From a virus (Duplodnaviria > Caudoviricetes), in the IMG/VR virus record IMGVR_UViG_3300020431_000008, positions 1 through 64,000 of that record: a DNA stretch of 64,000 nt; one strand, written 5' to 3'. Below the pieces are notes generated by a model that was not told where the DNA came from, ran no database searches, and saw only the letters and a list, made by a program, of their open reading frames with translations. The translations under genes were made by a program, and so were the position numbers. Of the stretch, positions 1 to 6,942 are shown piece after piece (position 1 is the first letter of the stretch; every line of letters begins with the position of its first letter).

Positions 1-497
1 TCAATACCAATGACTACATCACCAGGTCTGATATTACTACCATCAACAATATCATTCTTCTCTACAATACCAGTACAAAAACCAGCAAGGTCATAATCAG
101 TTGCTCTAAAATGCTCTGCTGTTTCTCCACCCAGAAGTTCCATATCAGACATCATACAACCAGTGGCAACTCCACGCACAATGTCACTGACATTATCATC
201 AAGTTTTTTAGTAGAGATATAGTCTAGAAAATATAATGGTTTAGCACCAGAACATATAACGTCATTGACGCACATAGCAACGAGATCCTGACCAATAGTG
301 GTGTAATCACGGGCAATCCTGCAAATGTTAATTTTAGTTCCAACACCATCAGCACCAGATACCAACACAGGTTTCTCATATCCTGATGGGATCTCCATCA
401 TTCCATTGAACCCACCAATGTTAGGTGCCAGTGCTTTGATATACTCTACAAAAGATCTACCCTTGATAATATCAACTCCAGAAGTTTTGTAATCCAT
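1..497 (-). CDS. purM: Phosphoribosylformylglycinamidine cyclo-ligase (AIR synthetase), runs off the left edge; auxiliary metabolic gene
   Basis: Not in ORF track (open at edge). Manual translation from ATG at 497: MDYKTSGVDIIKGRSFVEYIKALAPNIGGFNG...VSGADGVGTKINI...TIGQDLVAMCVNDVICSGAKPLYFLDY. Y..SGVDI, DGVGTK and D.VAMCVND are PurM signatures. Confidence 0.95.
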   Translation of the reverse strand, partial: MDYKTSGVDIIKGRSFVEYIKALAPNIGGFNGMMEIPSGYEKPVLVSGADGVGTKINICRIARDYTTIGQDLVAMCVNDVICSGAKPLYFLDYISTKKLDDNVSDIVRGVATGCMMSDMELLGGETAEHFRATDYDLAGFCTGIVEKNDIVDGSNIRPGDVVIGI

Positions 498-694
498 CAG
501 TCTCTTCCTAATCGAATGTATAATGTAATGAGTGATTGTGAGATCAGATCACAAGAATATGTAAATCCTTGTTTGTTTTCTTCGTCCCAGTATTCTCTTT
601 GACTTTTGAGAAGTGCAGAGAACTCTTTGATCTTAGACCTCATTTCGTCTTTTGATAATTTATCCAATGATTTCACCTCTGGCAATTTTTTCAC
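497..694 (-). CDS. Hypothetical protein (65 aa) between gp43 fragment and purM
   Basis: ORF track; its TGA overlaps the purM ATG (TGATG), suggesting translational coupling. Confidence 0.6.
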   Translation of the reverse strand: MKKLPEVKSLDKLSKDEMRSKIKEFSALLKSQREYWDEENKQGFTYSCDLISQSLITLYIRLGRD

Positions 695-932
695 GACGGT
701 CTAGTTTCCATACTATGTAATCCATTGTTGGGATACACATAGGGTTCCAACCAACAAAGGTAGTTGACTCTCCACTGGGTATCTTCCAACAGGGAGCATC
801 ATCATTGTCAAGGTCTAATGATTTACGATACTCATCCTCACCAAACATAACAACAGCACGTTCTGCTTCATTCAAACTAGTAAAACAAGCAAAACCATTC
901 TTTTTAATGACATCAGGGACATGGTGTTTCAT
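660..932 (-). CDS. Hypothetical protein (90 aa) directly after gp43 N-terminal half
   Basis: ORF track; ATGA overlap with the gp43A stop, preceded by purine-rich AGAGAGGA. Confidence 0.75.
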   Translation of the reverse strand: MKHHVPDVIKKNGFACFTSLNEAERAVVMFGEDEYRKSLDLDNDDAPCWKIPSGESTTFVGWNPMCIPTMDYIVWKLDRREKIARGEIIG

Positions 933-2389
933 AATCCTCTCTTCTTCATTTCAGATTCAATATCAACTAACTTCTGTTTACTTTGCAGCATCTTACCTTT
1001 AAATGCTTTTCTTTCAATGTACATCTTCTCCATAAGTTCAGGGAGGAACCCCTTCACATCCTTACGATACATTGCACCATTGGCACATACTGCATAATCT
1101 TTATACATTTCAAAGTTAAGTGACTCATCCAGAATCTTATTCACAGTTACTGATGGGTGCCTCTCATCCATCAATGTCTCTGGTGAAATATTGTATTGCA
1201 TCATCAGGTGAGGGTATAGTGAGTTAAGGTCAAAGGATGCTACCCAGTCATAGACACCAGGTTTTGGTTCCTTTACATAAGCACCAGCAAACTTATCACT
1301 CTTCTCACTTTTATCCTTCTGAGGAATAACAATATTTCTTCTCTTCAAGTAGTTGTAGATAATAGTATCCCACATCCTTACTTGATACATCACATCAACA
1401 TAGTTGACTTTAGCATCATATGCCATTGTGATTGCCAGTTCAATTAGTTTAAGTTTCTCCTCCAATTTGTCTACCAGTTCCACGTCAATGATGTTGTAGT
1501 CTACAAACTTCTTCCAGTTACCTTTATAGAAGTCTTTGAAAGTATCAAACTCACTGTGGTCTAGTTTCTTCTGACCTAGTTCAGTTTCTGCAATAAAGTC
1601 TAGTCTGTATGACTCACGATTTACATAGGTAAACTTCTTATACAGATCAAGGTAATCTAATGTGGTTAGACCAACAATGTCAAACACATTATACATCCTT
1701 CCTGTAATGGTAACCTCATCATGATTTACCATTCCCCAAGGAGACAATTCCTTTACCTTCTTTGGACCCATGATCCTACCAATCCTTCCACACAAGTATG
1801 GAATATCATATAGTCTCACATTCCATCCTGTAACAACATCAGGGGTATTGTTGGACCACCAATAAAGGAATGCATTCAACATCTCAACTTCATCACTGAA
1901 TTGATGATAGGTTACATTATTCTGTGAAGGAACATACTGGTGCCTTCCCCAAGTTGTGATCTTCTTCGTGCTGTAATCTTGAATAGAGATGGTTAACATC
2001 TCCTCAGAGCAGGATTCAGGATCAGGAAACCCAGCCTCTGCCTGAACCTCAATATCCATAGTCACCAAGTTTATCTTCTTGATGTCAAACTTTATCTCTT
2101 CCTCTGGGTACTTATCTGAGATGTATTGGTATACATACCTCTCATTTCCATAAATGGGGAACCCTTCTACATCACCATACCTTTTATAAAAATCTCTACA
2201 ATCCCTGACTGTTCCTGGTTGAATGGGTTCTACATTATCACCTTCAAGAGTTTTCCACTTACCCTCTTTCCTTGACTTAACATAGAGAGTTGGTTGGTAC
2301 TCTTCCCTAGCAGTGAAATTCTTTCCATTCTCAAAACCACGAACCAGGACATTATTACCAATCACCTGAACGTTGGTGTAAAACTTCAT
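929..2389 (-). CDS. gp43: Family B DNA polymerase, N-terminal half only (gp43A-like: N-terminal domain, 3'-5' exonuclease, palm motif A)
   Basis: ExoI MDIEVQ, ExoII GWNVRLYDIPYL, ExoIII YNIIDVELV, motif A SFDLNSLYPHLMMQYNISPET. Ends at KQKLVDIESEMKKRGL with no KxxxNSxYG or YGDTDS. Confidence 0.95.
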   Translation of the reverse strand: MKFYTNVQVIGNNVLVRGFENGKNFTAREEYQPTLYVKSRKEGKWKTLEGDNVEPIQPGTVRDCRDFYKRYGDVEGFPIYGNERYVYQYISDKYPEEEIKFDIKKINLVTMDIEVQAEAGFPDPESCSEEMLTISIQDYSTKKITTWGRHQYVPSQNNVTYHQFSDEVEMLNAFLYWWSNNTPDVVTGWNVRLYDIPYLCGRIGRIMGPKKVKELSPWGMVNHDEVTITGRMYNVFDIVGLTTLDYLDLYKKFTYVNRESYRLDFIAETELGQKKLDHSEFDTFKDFYKGNWKKFVDYNIIDVELVDKLEEKLKLIELAITMAYDAKVNYVDVMYQVRMWDTIIYNYLKRRNIVIPQKDKSEKSDKFAGAYVKEPKPGVYDWVASFDLNSLYPHLMMQYNISPETLMDERHPSVTVNKILDESLNFEMYKDYAVCANGAMYRKDVKGFLPELMEKMYIERKAFKGKMLQSKQKLVDIESEMKKRGL

Positions 2390-2643
2390 TTCACCAGTTT
2401 CTCATACTTGTCTTTTAGTTTACTATTAGGTTCTGTGATAGTCAAGATCTTATCTGAATGCATCATAAAGGTGTTCTGGGAAGTCAGATCAATCAACCAA
2501 GGAATCAATTCCAAAGTAGATTCATTGATAGTAAATGGTTCAATTAGTTTACAATCAGGTTCTCCCAGTTCTGTAGGAACTTCTTCAATTTGTGTAAGAA
2601 TGATCTGACTATTTGTCAGGATGAGTAACTTAATATCTTTCAT
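2386..2643 (-). CDS. Conserved hypothetical cyanophage protein upstream of gp43
   Basis: ORF track, 85 aa; ATGA overlap with gp43 start; position typical of T4-like cyanophages. Confidence 0.8.
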   Translation of the reverse strand: MKDIKLLILTNSQIILTQIEEVPTELGEPDCKLIEPFTINESTLELIPWLIDLTSQNTFMMHSDKILTITEPNSKLKDKYEKLVK

Positions 2644-2795
2644 TTTCCCACTCCATAATCAGGTGCTGTCATTTCAAGTTTGCTAATTGTATTATGTAGT
2701 TTAGCAATTGCTGCCTTTGCTTCAGGAGTTTCTTCCCAGCTCCACTCTTCTTCACGACCTTTACTGTCTTTCTTGGTGTTTTTCTTTTCAGACAT
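2640..2795 (-). CDS. Small hypothetical protein (51 aa)
   Basis: Manual translation MSEKKNTKKDSKGREEEWSWEETPEAKAAIAKLHNTISKLEMTAPDYGVGK*; ATGA overlap with next gene; 20 nt downstream of a TATAAT box. Confidence 0.7.
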   Translation of the reverse strand: MSEKKNTKKDSKGREEEWSWEETPEAKAAIAKLHNTISKLEMTAPDYGVGK

Positions 2796-2815
2796 ACAAA
2801 CTCTATTCTATCAAT

Positions 2816-2844
2816 ATTATAACATAAAAAAGAGGGGTTGTCAC
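2816..2844 (-). promoter_or_regulatory. Sigma70-type promoter for the gp43 operon
   Basis: Minus strand GTGACA-17 nt-TATAAT with extended -10 TG (TGtTATAAT). Confidence 0.7.
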
Positions 2845-2867
2845 TGGATTGTGCCAGTTACCCCTCT
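2826..2867 (-). terminator. Long interrupted hairpin plus U-tract; intrinsic terminator or 3' end of a small RNA
   Basis: Minus strand AGAGGGGT-AACTGG-CACAAT-CCAGTG-ACA-ACCCCTCT-TTTTT. Confidence 0.7.
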
Positions 2868-2887
2868 GCGACGACGATATTCAGTTT

Positions 2888-2895
2888 TATTTATT
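2888..2895 (-). promoter_or_regulatory. T4-type late promoter (AATAAATA)
   Basis: Matches the TATAAATA-like gp55 consensus; overlaps the stop of the micropeptide ORF. Confidence 0.55.
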
Positions 2896-2968
2896 CAGTT
2901 TTTGGAGTCAGTTTATATGCACCGAATGATGCTGCTGAGATTGCTGCAATGATTGCTAGAATTTCCAT
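2891..2968 (-). CDS. Hydrophobic micropeptide (25 aa)
   Basis: Manual translation MEILAIIAAISAASFGAYKLTPKTE*; single hydrophobic helix; below ORF-track cutoff. Confidence 0.55.
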   Translation of the reverse strand: MEILAIIAAISAASFGAYKLTPKTE

Positions 2969-2980
2969 GGTTGAGAAGTA

Positions 2981-3064
2981 TTAGGACAGAACAGGATACA
3001 ACACACCCCAACTAAAAAGATATGTTACTGTACCAAAAAGTATGGTAGTCATGGTGAAGTTCAT
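2981..3064 (-). CDS. Hydrophobic micropeptide (27 aa)
   Basis: Manual translation MNFTMTTILFGTVTYLFSWGVLYPVLS*; GGAG Shine-Dalgarno 6 nt upstream, TATAAT boxes further upstream. Confidence 0.55.
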   Translation of the reverse strand: MNFTMTTILFGTVTYLFSWGVLYPVLS

Positions 3065-3103
3065 AGTGGTCTCCATCAGATTACATAATTATATAGATTA
3101 TAC

Positions 3104-3159
3104 TGTATCACCATGATACACTTCTGTATCAACCGCAGCGAAAATCTGTCAGAGTATCA
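3104..3159. repeat. Cluster of TGTATCA/TGATACA half-sites forming overlapping palindromes
   Basis: TGTATCA-CCA-TGATACA (3104-3120), TGATACA-CTTC-TGTATCA (3114-3131), extra GTATCA at 3154-3159; adjacent to minus-strand TATAAT at 3097-3102 and 3088-3093. Confidence 0.75.
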
Positions 3160-3588
3160 AAACCAGACCTTCTTTTGATGATGTTCAGGAACAATCCTGT
3201 TCATAGAGACTGTTAAGAGCCCATTCTCAAATTTAACTGATCCAACTTCCGTATCCTCTGCCAGTGTCCAAGCTCTGGTGAAAGATCTTGCAGCCACTCC
3301 TCTATGGATGTATGTTGGATTCTCTGTGGATTCTTCTCGTTTTCCTTCAACGAAAAGTTTTCCTTCTTCTGTGTAGACATTGACTTCTTCTGGTGTAAAT
3401 CCTGCCAATGCTAACTCTAGTTGTGATTCTGTATCACTGACTTGGATGAGGTTGTATGGAGGATAATTTGATGTTTCTTGACCTCTTAGGATTCTATCAA
3501 TATAGTCATCCATTCCAATTGTGTTACGCGTGATCCTGTCCATGAATTTGTCCAGGTCGGCGGCATTGTACTTCATGAGATTGGCCAT
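3157..3588 (-). CDS. hsp20: Small heat-shock protein (Hsp20/IbpA family)
   Basis: NYPPYNLI, LELALAGF, YIHRGVAARSFTRAWTL, VKFENGLLTV motifs. Start moved to MANLMKYN because AAGGAG precedes it. Confidence 0.95.
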   Translation of the reverse strand: MANLMKYNAADLDKFMDRITRNTIGMDDYIDRILRGQETSNYPPYNLIQVSDTESQLELALAGFTPEEVNVYTEEGKLFVEGKREESTENPTYIHRGVAARSFTRAWTLAEDTEVGSVKFENGLLTVSMNRIVPEHHQKKVWF

Positions 3589-4571: not shown

Positions 4572-4712
4572 TTAAAATACAGCAGTTACGCCAACAATAG
4601 TAGCATCAGGATTACGAGCCAGAGCAACCTTCTTAGCATCCTGATAATCTCTAGCAATCACTTCTTCTTTGAAAACTGTTCCTGCTTTAAACAATGTCAC
4701 TTGACACTTCAT
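4572..4712 (-). CDS. Small hypothetical protein (46 aa)
   Basis: Manual translation MKCQVTLFKAGTVFKEEVIARDYQDAKKVALARNPDATIVGVTAVF*; fills the gap between dam and gp62. Confidence 0.7.
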   Translation of the reverse strand: MKCQVTLFKAGTVFKEEVIARDYQDAKKVALARNPDATIVGVTAVF

Positions 4713-5538
4713 AATTAAAAAGTAGTAGTTCTTTTCTGCTCTTCTGTTCTCTCATATACTCCCCAACAGAACGCATAGTATATGTATGATCAAACTCTGC
4801 TGTATTCCAATCAATGAATCTATCCTTAACAAGTTGATCTGAATTGTAACTAATAAGTTGATTCAGATTAGTTTCATTACAAGTCTTAGCAAAAAGATCA
4901 TGATCAAATCCTCTGTGCATACTGCCCTTCTTTCCATAGATATTATCCTTGATATCATAGGGTGGGTCAAGATATACAAATGCTTTCCTTTCAGACTGCT
5001 CATCTAAAAGTTGTTCATAACTAAGATTAGTAATCTTCCAGTTCTTGATAAGTTCTGAATACCCAGGAAGTTTTTCAATTCCTCTGATAGAAAAGTTACC
5101 TTCTGATGCTGCTTTAGAGAATGAAGAACTCTCAGTAAGACCTGAGAAAGAGCACTTGTTTACCACATAGAATGAAATTGCTCTCCAGAAGTTATCATCA
5201 CCATCACTTGCTAGATATTCTTTTGCTGAAAAGAATAAACCCTTTGCTGAATCAGGGGTACAGTTCTTATACTTCAATTCAAGAAGTTTTTCCCTCATAG
5301 CAACTCCATCATTCTGAAGTTGCTTCCAGAAGTTAACTAGAGGAGCATACAAATCATTTACCCAAATACTAACAGTAGGATACTTCTTAGTCACATATAA
5401 AGAGACACTCCCACCACCAATGAATGGTTCCCTAAACTCACCATATTCACGAAGATCAGGAATATAAGGACCAATCTTTTTGCATGCACGTGACTTACCT
5501 CCTGGATATCTTAAAGGCGTCTTATGAGATTTCATCAT
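4687..5538 (-). CDS. dam: D12-class N6-adenine DNA methyltransferase (Dam-like)
   Basis: LRYPGGKSR, EPFIGGGSV (SAM binding), VNDL, catalytic YLDPPY. Confidence 0.93.
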   Translation of the reverse strand: MMKSHKTPLRYPGGKSRACKKIGPYIPDLREYGEFREPFIGGGSVSLYVTKKYPTVSIWVNDLYAPLVNFWKQLQNDGVAMREKLLELKYKNCTPDSAKGLFFSAKEYLASDGDDNFWRAISFYVVNKCSFSGLTESSSFSKAASEGNFSIRGIEKLPGYSELIKNWKITNLSYEQLLDEQSERKAFVYLDPPYDIKDNIYGKKGSMHRGFDHDLFAKTCNETNLNQLISYNSDQLVKDRFIDWNTAEFDHTYTMRSVGEYMREQKSRKELLLFNYEVSSDIV

Positions 5539-5994: not shown

Positions 5995-6942
5995 TTACTT
6001 AAACTCACATTCAACCATAATCTCAGTCAGACAAGCAAGCATATTTATTTCTTGGTCTGCGACGAACGAACTTTGATACTGATACTTAGCAATAATAAGA
6101 ACAGCAGCAGCAATCCCAGGACCTGCCAAGTGTACATAAAGAGCATCATAAATGCTGCGCAAGAGTACAGTAGGATCATTGTCCAAATTATCAACGACCC
6201 ACTTTCTGACCTGAGAATAGTCTTTACCTTTGAGAGTTTTGAAAAGATCATCTGTCTTTACGTTACTGAAAGTTGCAAGGATACCACTATCTATTTTACC
6301 ACTAACTGAGTATCTCTGCAACTCATTAAGAACACGTCTCCAATCAGGAAAGTGTTTTTGAATAAGTTCTACTAAAACTTTTGGATCATATTCCACAACC
6401 TCTGTCTCAAGTATAGACCTGAGACGGTTGAAAAACTTCGCTGCAAGTTCTTGTCTTTCTTTGCCTCTGATGGAGAAGTCAACGACGGAGCATCTAGAGT
6501 GGAGAGGTTGAATGATTTTGTTTTTGTAGTTGCAGGTGAAGATGAATCTGCAGTTGCCAATAAACTCCTCTGTAAACGCCCTAAGGCAGAGTTGTACATC
6601 TGGGGTGGTGTTGTCAGCCTCATCAATGATGATGACTTTGTGTTTTGCCTCAGAAGATAACGATACAGTTGAAGCGAAGTTCTTGGCGTTGTTCCTGACG
6701 GTATCAAGAAATCTTCCCTCATCGGATCCATTGATGACATAATAATCTGCTCCTAGTTCCTGACATAATGCTTTTGCTACTGTAGTCTTACCACATCCTG
6801 GAGGTCCAGAAAGGAGAAGATTTGGAACCTCACCCTTTGCTAAGAAATCTTTGAATGTTTTTTTTGTACTCTCTGGAAGAATACATTCATCAATTGTCTT
6901 TGGGCGATACTTCTCTACCCAAATGAACTCATTACGACTCAT
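5995..6942 (-). CDS. gp44: Clamp loader large subunit gp44 (RFC-like AAA+)
   Basis: WVEKYRPKTIDECILP, Walker A GPPGCGKTT, Walker B IIIDEAD, SRC motif. Confidence 0.97.
   Translation of the reverse strand: MSRNEFIWVEKYRPKTIDECILPESTKKTFKDFLAKGEVPNLLLSGPPGCGKTTVAKALCQELGADYYVINGSDEGRFLDTVRNNAKNFASTVSLSSEAKHKVIIIDEADNTTPDVQLCLRAFTEEFIGNCRFIFTCNYKNKIIQPLHSRCSVVDFSIRGKERQELAAKFFNRLRSILETEVVEYDPKVLVELIQKHFPDWRRVLNELQRYSVSGKIDSGILATFSNVKTDDLFKTLKGKDYSQVRKWVVDNLDNDPTVLLRSIYDALYVHLAGPGIAAAVLIIAKYQYQSSFVADQEINMLACLTEIMVECEFK

Follow-up and report, generated by a model that had tools for sequence, protein, structure and literature searches.

Where is the second half of gp43? A cyanophage contig on which a probably two-gene DNA polymerase breaks at the fingers and a purM cassette follows

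Where is the rest of a DNA polymerase whose gene stops in the fingers domain and is followed by purine synthesis genes? The question is raised by the cyanophage contig IMGVR_UViG_3300020431_000008 of IMG/VR (77,602 bases, CheckV completeness 40%), of which bases 1-64,000 were analysed here and are referred to as the window. Close to its left end, on the minus strand like all other features of this locus given below, lies an open reading frame (ORF) of 486 amino acids (929..2389), here called gp43A, which corresponds to a family B DNA polymerase from its N-terminal domain through the 3'-5' exonuclease and the beginning of the palm up to the first fingers helix. Two small genes, orf90 and orf65, and the beginning of purM come next; position 1 of the window is base 1 of the contig, and the record has no sequence further left. 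An earlier note, drawn up from the letters alone, had taken the ORF for one subunit of a split gp43. Related loci, cited below by numbers preceded by L, support this view: the phage very probably has a naturally split gp43 consisting of gp43A and a separate gp43B that assemble non-covalently. While the anatomy of gp43A, its conservation, the split state of related loci and the gene order of the nearest relative were observed, we infer the position of gp43B, the association of the chains and their activity.

The gene product is recognizable as the front part of a polymerase and ends abruptly. Pfam, regular expressions and tblastn agree with the earlier description of an ORF that has the three exonuclease motifs and motif A and is devoid of motifs B and C. 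The profile DNA_pol_B_exo1 (PF03104) matches with an E value of 1.3e-21, and DNA_pol_B is matched only over positions 18-144 of its 453 (E 3.9e-19), approximately the first third. Regular expressions place the exonuclease motifs within 1484..2056, namely Exo I with D112/E114 in MDIEV (2048-2056), Exo II with N190..D195 (1805-1822) and Exo III with Y298..D302 (1484-1498), and identify palm motif A (DxxSLYP) as DLNSLYP in residues 387-393 (1211..1231). By the same approach, motifs B (KxxxNSxYG) and C (DTDS) were found neither in the ORF nor in the six frames of window 1-940 nor in the whole contig, and neither Pfam PF00136 nor tblastn with full-length gp43 detected a second half of gp43 on the contig. 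Aligned to gp43 of T4 and RB69, residues 472-473 correspond to T4 492 and RB69 494, within the first fingers helix, and an AlphaFold2 model contains one long helix (448-483) reaching the C-terminus of gp43A. The proposed end within this helix was thereby confirmed, and the last residues of the helix (472-486, QKLVDIESEMKKRGL; 932..976) form a conserved tail. Its supposed amphipathic character had to be dropped, as the hydrophobic moment of the last 21 residues (0.95 in comparison to a shuffle mean of 0.67) is attained by 21% of shuffles and is not significant.

What the missing half is expected to look like can be read from relatives. Among the usual gp43 proteins of 831-845 amino acids, a protein search yielded many homologues of 486-491 amino acids with 75-88% identity, and their contigs carry gp43A, a separate gp43B of approximately 388 amino acids, and then uvsX and gp41. 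The gp43B of these relatives starts with MGYLIGG, bears motif B as KIALNSxYG and motif C as SDTDS, and aligns to residues 555-897 of RB69 gp43, with its residue 49 corresponding to RB69 555. Split loci were gathered by protein, by purM and by the coding pattern of MGYLIGG, resulting in 82 distinct split junctions. The stop of gp43A overlaps the start of gp43B in 63 of them, a gap of 95-2,865 nt is present in the other 19, and gp43B lies on the same strand within 2.9 kb of gp43A in all 82. In a joint alignment, the first fingers helix of continuous cyanophage polymerases runs straight into the second. The split first chain ends with ...KQKLVDIExEMKxRG(L/I), approximately 14 residues beyond its divergence from the continuous relatives; the second chain opens with MGYLIGG, and an acidic linker (about 20 residues) and the second fingers helix come next. 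On its side, gp43B adds about 27-40 residues. According to this alignment, the break lies at the tip of the fingers hairpin, where a loop links its two helices.

In the cultured phages closest to the window (RN05-S, S-B43 and P-TIM68), gp43 is one continuous gene of 831-845 codons, which might point to a chimeric join or an indel at approximately 929-932 that introduced a false stop into such a gene. Against this, the junction of gp43A and orf90 is the same in four independent assemblies from different samples (L011-L014), two of which continue via orf65 into purM, and the exact 486-residue protein is present on six contigs. Moreover, no coding remnant of the gp43 C-terminus follows gp43A in any frame, and dozens of diverged lineages as well as 45 GenBank records of the cultured Synechococcus phage ACG-2014f share the position of the stop. 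Misassembly of this junction is excluded, and an assembly artefact as the origin of the split has practically no probability left. The stop is also as clean as had been described: its TGA is shared with the ATG of orf90 in an ATGA overlap, and AGAGAGGA precedes it.

That a stop is genuine does not make the protein a polymerase subunit, and the ORF could be a remnant or a stand-alone exonuclease of a phage without a gp43 polymerase domain of its own. The lack of motifs B and C in 77.6 kb and the CheckV completeness of only 40% would be compatible with this. Relatives with enough sequence, however, all carry gp43B, and uvsX, gp41 and gp43B have their place in the 60% of the genome that the contig lacks; uvsX, which is located 3' of gp43B in all relatives, is absent from the contig as well. 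In addition, purifying selection has preserved motif A and the fingers helix in lineages with identities as low as 53%. Over 39 split sequences spanning this range, L474, V475, E478, E480, K482 and R484 of the gp43A tail and G2, L4, I5 and G7 of the gp43B head are invariant. The ratio of nonsynonymous to synonymous polymorphism (pN/pS) is 0.19-0.21 in the gp43A tail and 0.13 (pS 0.67) in the gp43B head MGYLIGGA, compared to 0.24 in the gp43A body, 0.20 in the gp43B body and 0.50 in the acidic linker, with synonymous sites near saturation throughout. These values indicate that both new ends are under purifying selection and conserved as protein. Together, these points render a remnant or a lone exonuclease very improbable.

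In the two-gene polymerase proposed here, the N-terminal domain and the proofreading exonuclease would come from gp43A, along with palm motif A and the first helix of the fingers; the second fingers helix, which bears motif B, would come from a separate gp43B together with palm motif C and the thumb. Non-covalent assembly of the two chains into one enzyme is expected, as has been demonstrated biochemically for Aeromonas phage 25, whose gp43A and gp43B halves are reported to co-purify and polymerise (PMC2988022). Re-association may occur through the terminal helix, as the earlier note had suggested, and conserved ends would be expected if the tails help the chains to dock. Models of the single chains contain disordered palm segments with a predicted local distance difference test score below 50 (gp43A 360-391; gp43B 168-219), and the first 27 residues of gp43B modelled alone are unstructured; the disordered palm gives a slight hint that neither half would be complete on its own.

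Instead of two associated chains, a single-chain enzyme might arise if the halves were united at the RNA or protein level, through trans-splicing of an intron, a split intein or ribosomal bypass. Marine cyanophage DNA does contain 'fractured genes' in which split inteins flank a gap with a nuclease gene (PMC2677866), and one such gene, uvsX of L030, was encountered in this study. For gp43, however, the approximately 14 extra residues of gp43A and 27-40 of gp43B are far too few for intein halves, and the ends lack the Cys/Ser-His-Asn intein blocks. A split intein, which would require an N-intein of about 100 amino acids and a C-intein of about 35-40 ending in HN before Cys, Ser or Thr, was rejected as a candidate since there is neither room for it nor any of its blocks. 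No group I or II intron RNA was matched by Rfam at E values up to 1 in window 1-3200, and the interval downstream of gp43A is occupied by conserved protein genes. Considering also that the phage 25 polypeptides co-purify as separate chains (PMC2988022), joining of the halves is highly improbable, still more so than a remnant.

What, then, occupies the place of gp43B? The gene orf90 (660..932; phrog_1132, E 1.8e-56) is a conserved cyanophage gene of unknown function, usually located 5' of purM, and orf65 (497..694; phrog_5029, E 3.6e-37), small and likewise conserved in cyanophages, separates orf90 from purM. Of purM, which encodes AIR synthetase (3..497; Pfam AIRS, E 2.1e-21), only the first 165 codons precede the end of the contig. 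orf90 and orf65 overlap by 35 nt, and the start of purM overlaps the stop of orf65 in a TGATG. In most of the approximately 120 purM loci examined, orf90 adjoins purM, while orf65 is part of about half of the purM cassettes; full-length relatives of purM have 304-328 amino acids. The 'gene island' of the earlier note is an ordinary cyanophage orf90-orf65-purM cassette, translationally chained to gp43A. Its claim holds insofar as genes other than the second half follow gp43A, but what follows is a purine cassette, small and widespread, rather than a large insertion that would break the linkage of the halves. Where gp43 is continuous, the same cassette is often situated upstream of it, at a distance of 1-1.5 kb (L076, L089, L097, L128, L133, L164 and L167).

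The cassette belongs to a single tight gene chain on the minus strand (window 1-2844), in which starts overlap preceding stops. Upstream members are a gene for a DUF6561 protein (2386-2643), overlapping gp43A, and an ORF of 51 amino acids (2640-2795), overlapping the DUF6561 gene; a consensus scan further located a sigma-70-like promoter match (GTGACA, 17 nt, TATAAT; 11 of 12 positions) upstream of these genes, at 2816..2844. No terminator-like site with a solid stem was detected between this match and position 1. We therefore read the cassette as a probable part of the polymerase operon, because each gene start overlaps the previous stop. In the lineage of the window, the gap between the halves would have captured orf90, orf65 and purM, probably followed by purS; the contig ends inside purM, and gp43B, uvsX and gp41 would come thereafter.

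This expectation is supported by the nearest complete relative, L370 (a 134-kb contig of JGI 3300066022), to which a query with gp43B from L276 led. The gp43A proteins of L370 and the window share 97.5% identity, and the upstream 6 kb of L370 show 91-93% DNA identity and the same order of denV, purC, gp44, dam, gp62, regA, hsp20, the 51-amino-acid ORF and the DUF6561 gene. The locus consists of gp43A, orf89, purM (304 amino acids), purS (84 amino acids), gp43B (387 amino acids), uvsX and gp41, all with overlapping junctions. L370 thus resembles the window in upstream synteny and in an orf90-like gene and purM within the gap; it differs by the lack of orf65, by purS in front of gp43B and by being complete across the locus. 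Its gp43B lies 1,434 nt past the gp43A stop, which fits the distance of at least 929 nt that the earlier note had derived for the window, whose own gp43B was not recovered. Because approximately 140-145 purM codons are missing and purS may be present, the start of gp43B is expected outside the window, at a distance of about 0.45-0.7 kb from position 1, equivalent to about 1.4-1.7 kb after the gp43A stop.

Two observations weigh against a gp43B at this position. Firstly, the same-strain assemblies found all end before crossing purM, so that the gp43B of this genome was not obtained. Exact look-ups of gp43A, orf90 and orf65 retrieved only assemblies that likewise end in or near purM, as do all contigs with the exact gp43A, and no full-length purM with more than 96% identity to the partial purM of the window was found. 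Neither a 30-mer of purM specific to the strain nor the purM/gp43B junction of L276 gave a hit in metagenome scans, although near-identical records may lie outside the scan. Secondly, the purM alleles closest to the N-terminal part present in the window (L176-L178, 96% amino acid identity) reside in another context, in which the cassette is followed by glutaredoxin, DUF6433, thyX and phoH and not by gp43B.

It may therefore be asked whether gp43B exists but is unlinked, with the cassette running into other genes as in L176-L178 and gp43B, uvsX and gp41 located elsewhere. The closest DNA relatives of the cassette (90-93%) are indeed those with glutaredoxin, DUF6433, thyX and phoH downstream, and the contig stops before the linkage can be read. 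On the other hand, the relative nearest by gp43A and by flanking synteny has gp43B directly after purM and purS, no exception to close linkage occurred among the 82 split loci, and purM is a poor guide to linkage. Hundreds of cyanophage contigs encode purM proteins with 86-96% identity, the 29 bases at the left end of the window recur exactly in 46 IMG/VR contigs, 24-mers along purM match differing contigs like a patchwork, and the similarity rankings of its two ends are uncorrelated (Spearman 0.12, p 0.23). Recombination has made purM a mosaic, and assemblies recurrently break in it because this stretch is near-identical among co-occurring strains and cannot be crossed by short-read assemblers. 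As a mosaic, it is not usable for linking contigs, and the nearest purM allele says little about what follows. An unlinked gp43B is hence unlikely, albeit less so than the alternatives discussed above.

For the same reason, a linkage of the window to L276/L332 via purM was rejected. L276/L332 counts in favour of a gp43B behind purM: its sequence begins within purM, of which the final 68 codons are present, and a TGATG overlap leads on to gp43B, with uvsX and gp41 coming next. With 86-87% identity, its gp43B is about as close to the gp43B of the L009 clade as the gp43A of the window is to the gp43A of this clade (87-89%). The L276 gp43B is present on one contig only, so that strain identity is not shown.

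A split of this kind is already known; to it the window contributes a further strain, whose cassette has orf65 as an additional gene. Among cultured phages, only the cyanomyovirus ACG-2014f (Atlauavirus) shows the fingertip split, with the same tails and an arrangement of 491 amino acids, two small ORFs and 389 amino acids. Its gp43A is 64-65% identical to that of the window, and its gap is filled by the two small ORFs instead of purM. The halves are annotated as two 'DNA polymerase' coding sequences, and the start of gp43B is unannotated in about half of the records. A full-text search found no paper on split gp43 in cyanomyoviruses; a survey of Kyanoviridae polymerases from 2024 mentions splits only in Autographiviridae.

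The phages 25 and 44RR2.8t of Aeromonas salmonicida, studied by Petrov, Karam and co-workers as cited in PMC2988022 and PMC2677866, likewise are T4-like myoviruses and have a family B polymerase split at the fingertip. In the joint alignment, the break of phage 25, whose 43A has 498 amino acids compared to 486 in the window, coincides with the one described here. These phages infect another host group, and their gp43 has only distant sequence similarity to that of cyanophages; the cyanophage tails (…RG(L/I), MGYLIGG…) are not shared with phage 25 beyond a short RGIK resemblance. In their gap there is nothing, non-coding sequence or a gene for a homing endonuclease, and no intein, in contrast to the metabolic genes chained by overlaps in the window (purM, probably purS). 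Phage 25 43B also carries an intron, while none was seen in the window.

The 'fractured genes' reported by Dassa et al. 2009 (PMC2677866) are a further parallel, in that an essential replication gene of marine cyanophages is divided in two and the gap may contain a homing-type nuclease gene. The gap in L015 and L065 with its HNH ORF resembles this layout, whereas the window has no nuclease gene there. The gp43 break differs by the absence of intein halves, so that protein splicing would not be expected. An intein-less split of an essential enzyme whose two chains reassemble into an active form is known from NrdA of Aeromonas phage Aeh1, with its mobE insertion (PMC2988022), although this is a different enzyme and its nuclease gene is still present.

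The contents of the gap vary by lineage. It may be empty or contain a 65-amino-acid ORF, a small ORF of phrog_3538 or thioredoxin. purM alone occupies it in L022, L264, L270, L288, L317 and L202, and orf90, purM and purS are present in L169, L315 and L256, in line with a gp43B behind purM in the window. An HNH endonuclease gene (phrog_374, E 1.4e-56) stands between gp43A and gp43B in two distant lineages (L015:4226-4687, L065:1860-2315), the former belonging to the clade of the window. The gap between the halves is accordingly an insertion hot spot that is empty or filled with small ORFs, an HNH gene, thioredoxin or purM/purS. As a separate observation, the gap of two deep-branching split lineages (L316:2216-4868, L265:2852-3916) encodes a protein of 354 amino acids with a weak match to DruA of Druantia (Pfam E 3.2e-9; phrog_19197), next to which L316 has a 498-amino-acid protein of no known family.

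A quick FastTree phylogeny, computed from residues 1-472 of 116 sequences with phage 25 as the root, shows split and continuous gp43 genes interleaved, and its well-supported branches require at least six changes between the two states. The two deepest cyanophage branches are split, the continuous genes comprise at least four different junction types, and purM occurs in the gap of three separate clades. The window falls into a fully supported clade of seven exclusively split members, the others of which have abutting halves or, in L015, the HNH gene between them. This pattern would fit an old split with several re-fusions, or a horizontal spread of the split together with its tails by homing-type recombination, followed by repeated capture of cargo. 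A tentative proposal, to which we give somewhat less than an even chance, is that the fingertip gap acts as a mobile 'landing pad': the split and its tails would have spread by nuclease-driven homing or recombination and sometimes been re-fused, and cargo would have been captured repeatedly, purM or purM-purS at least three times independently. If this holds, purine synthesis would have come under the control of the polymerase operon, in a fixed translational step with the polymerase. Equally open is the alternative that the split is ancestral to cyanomyoviruses and that the continuous genes stem from several different fusions.

For the window itself, with the missing half just off the contig, this is mostly a housekeeping result. 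Beyond the window, the findings imply for annotators and for surveys with g43 as a marker that gp43 is divided into two genes in a large share of ocean cyanomyoviruses, and that a 'DNA polymerase' of 486 amino acids is neither a fragment nor an error. As a natural and diverse collection of two-chain family B polymerases, the split loci further allow one to ask how a break in the fingers hairpin is tolerated. Finally, the auxiliary metabolic gene purM is located inside an essential replication operon, which bears on the acquisition and regulation of such genes.

Further upstream in the window, genes for a Dam-type methyltransferase (4687-5538) and the gp44 clamp loader (5995-6942) are found; the order gp44, dam, gp62, regA, hsp20 is the usual one for cyanomyoviruses. 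The gene purC, encoding SAICAR synthase, is located still further upstream in the same-strain contigs L011 and L012. A second and different split of gp43 was observed in L030 (301-3489) and also in L047, L050, L052 and L061. In this type, the first ORF ends just past motif A (...SISPETL and a tail of 17 residues), and an ORF of 174 amino acids follows with similarity to GIY-YIG nucleases (Pfam LEM-3_GIY-YIG, E 3e-4, which misses the cut-off). The C-terminal part of 460 amino acids comes next, its fingers hairpin being unbroken. The uvsX gene is interrupted in L066 and in L030 (3659-5735), where it has the layout of a 'fractured gene' as described by Dassa et al. 2009: the N-terminal part ends with an intein-N-like segment (CLVAGT...), an HNH ORF of 224 amino acids follows, and the C-terminal part opens with an intein-C-like segment that ends with ...GLVSHN before S.

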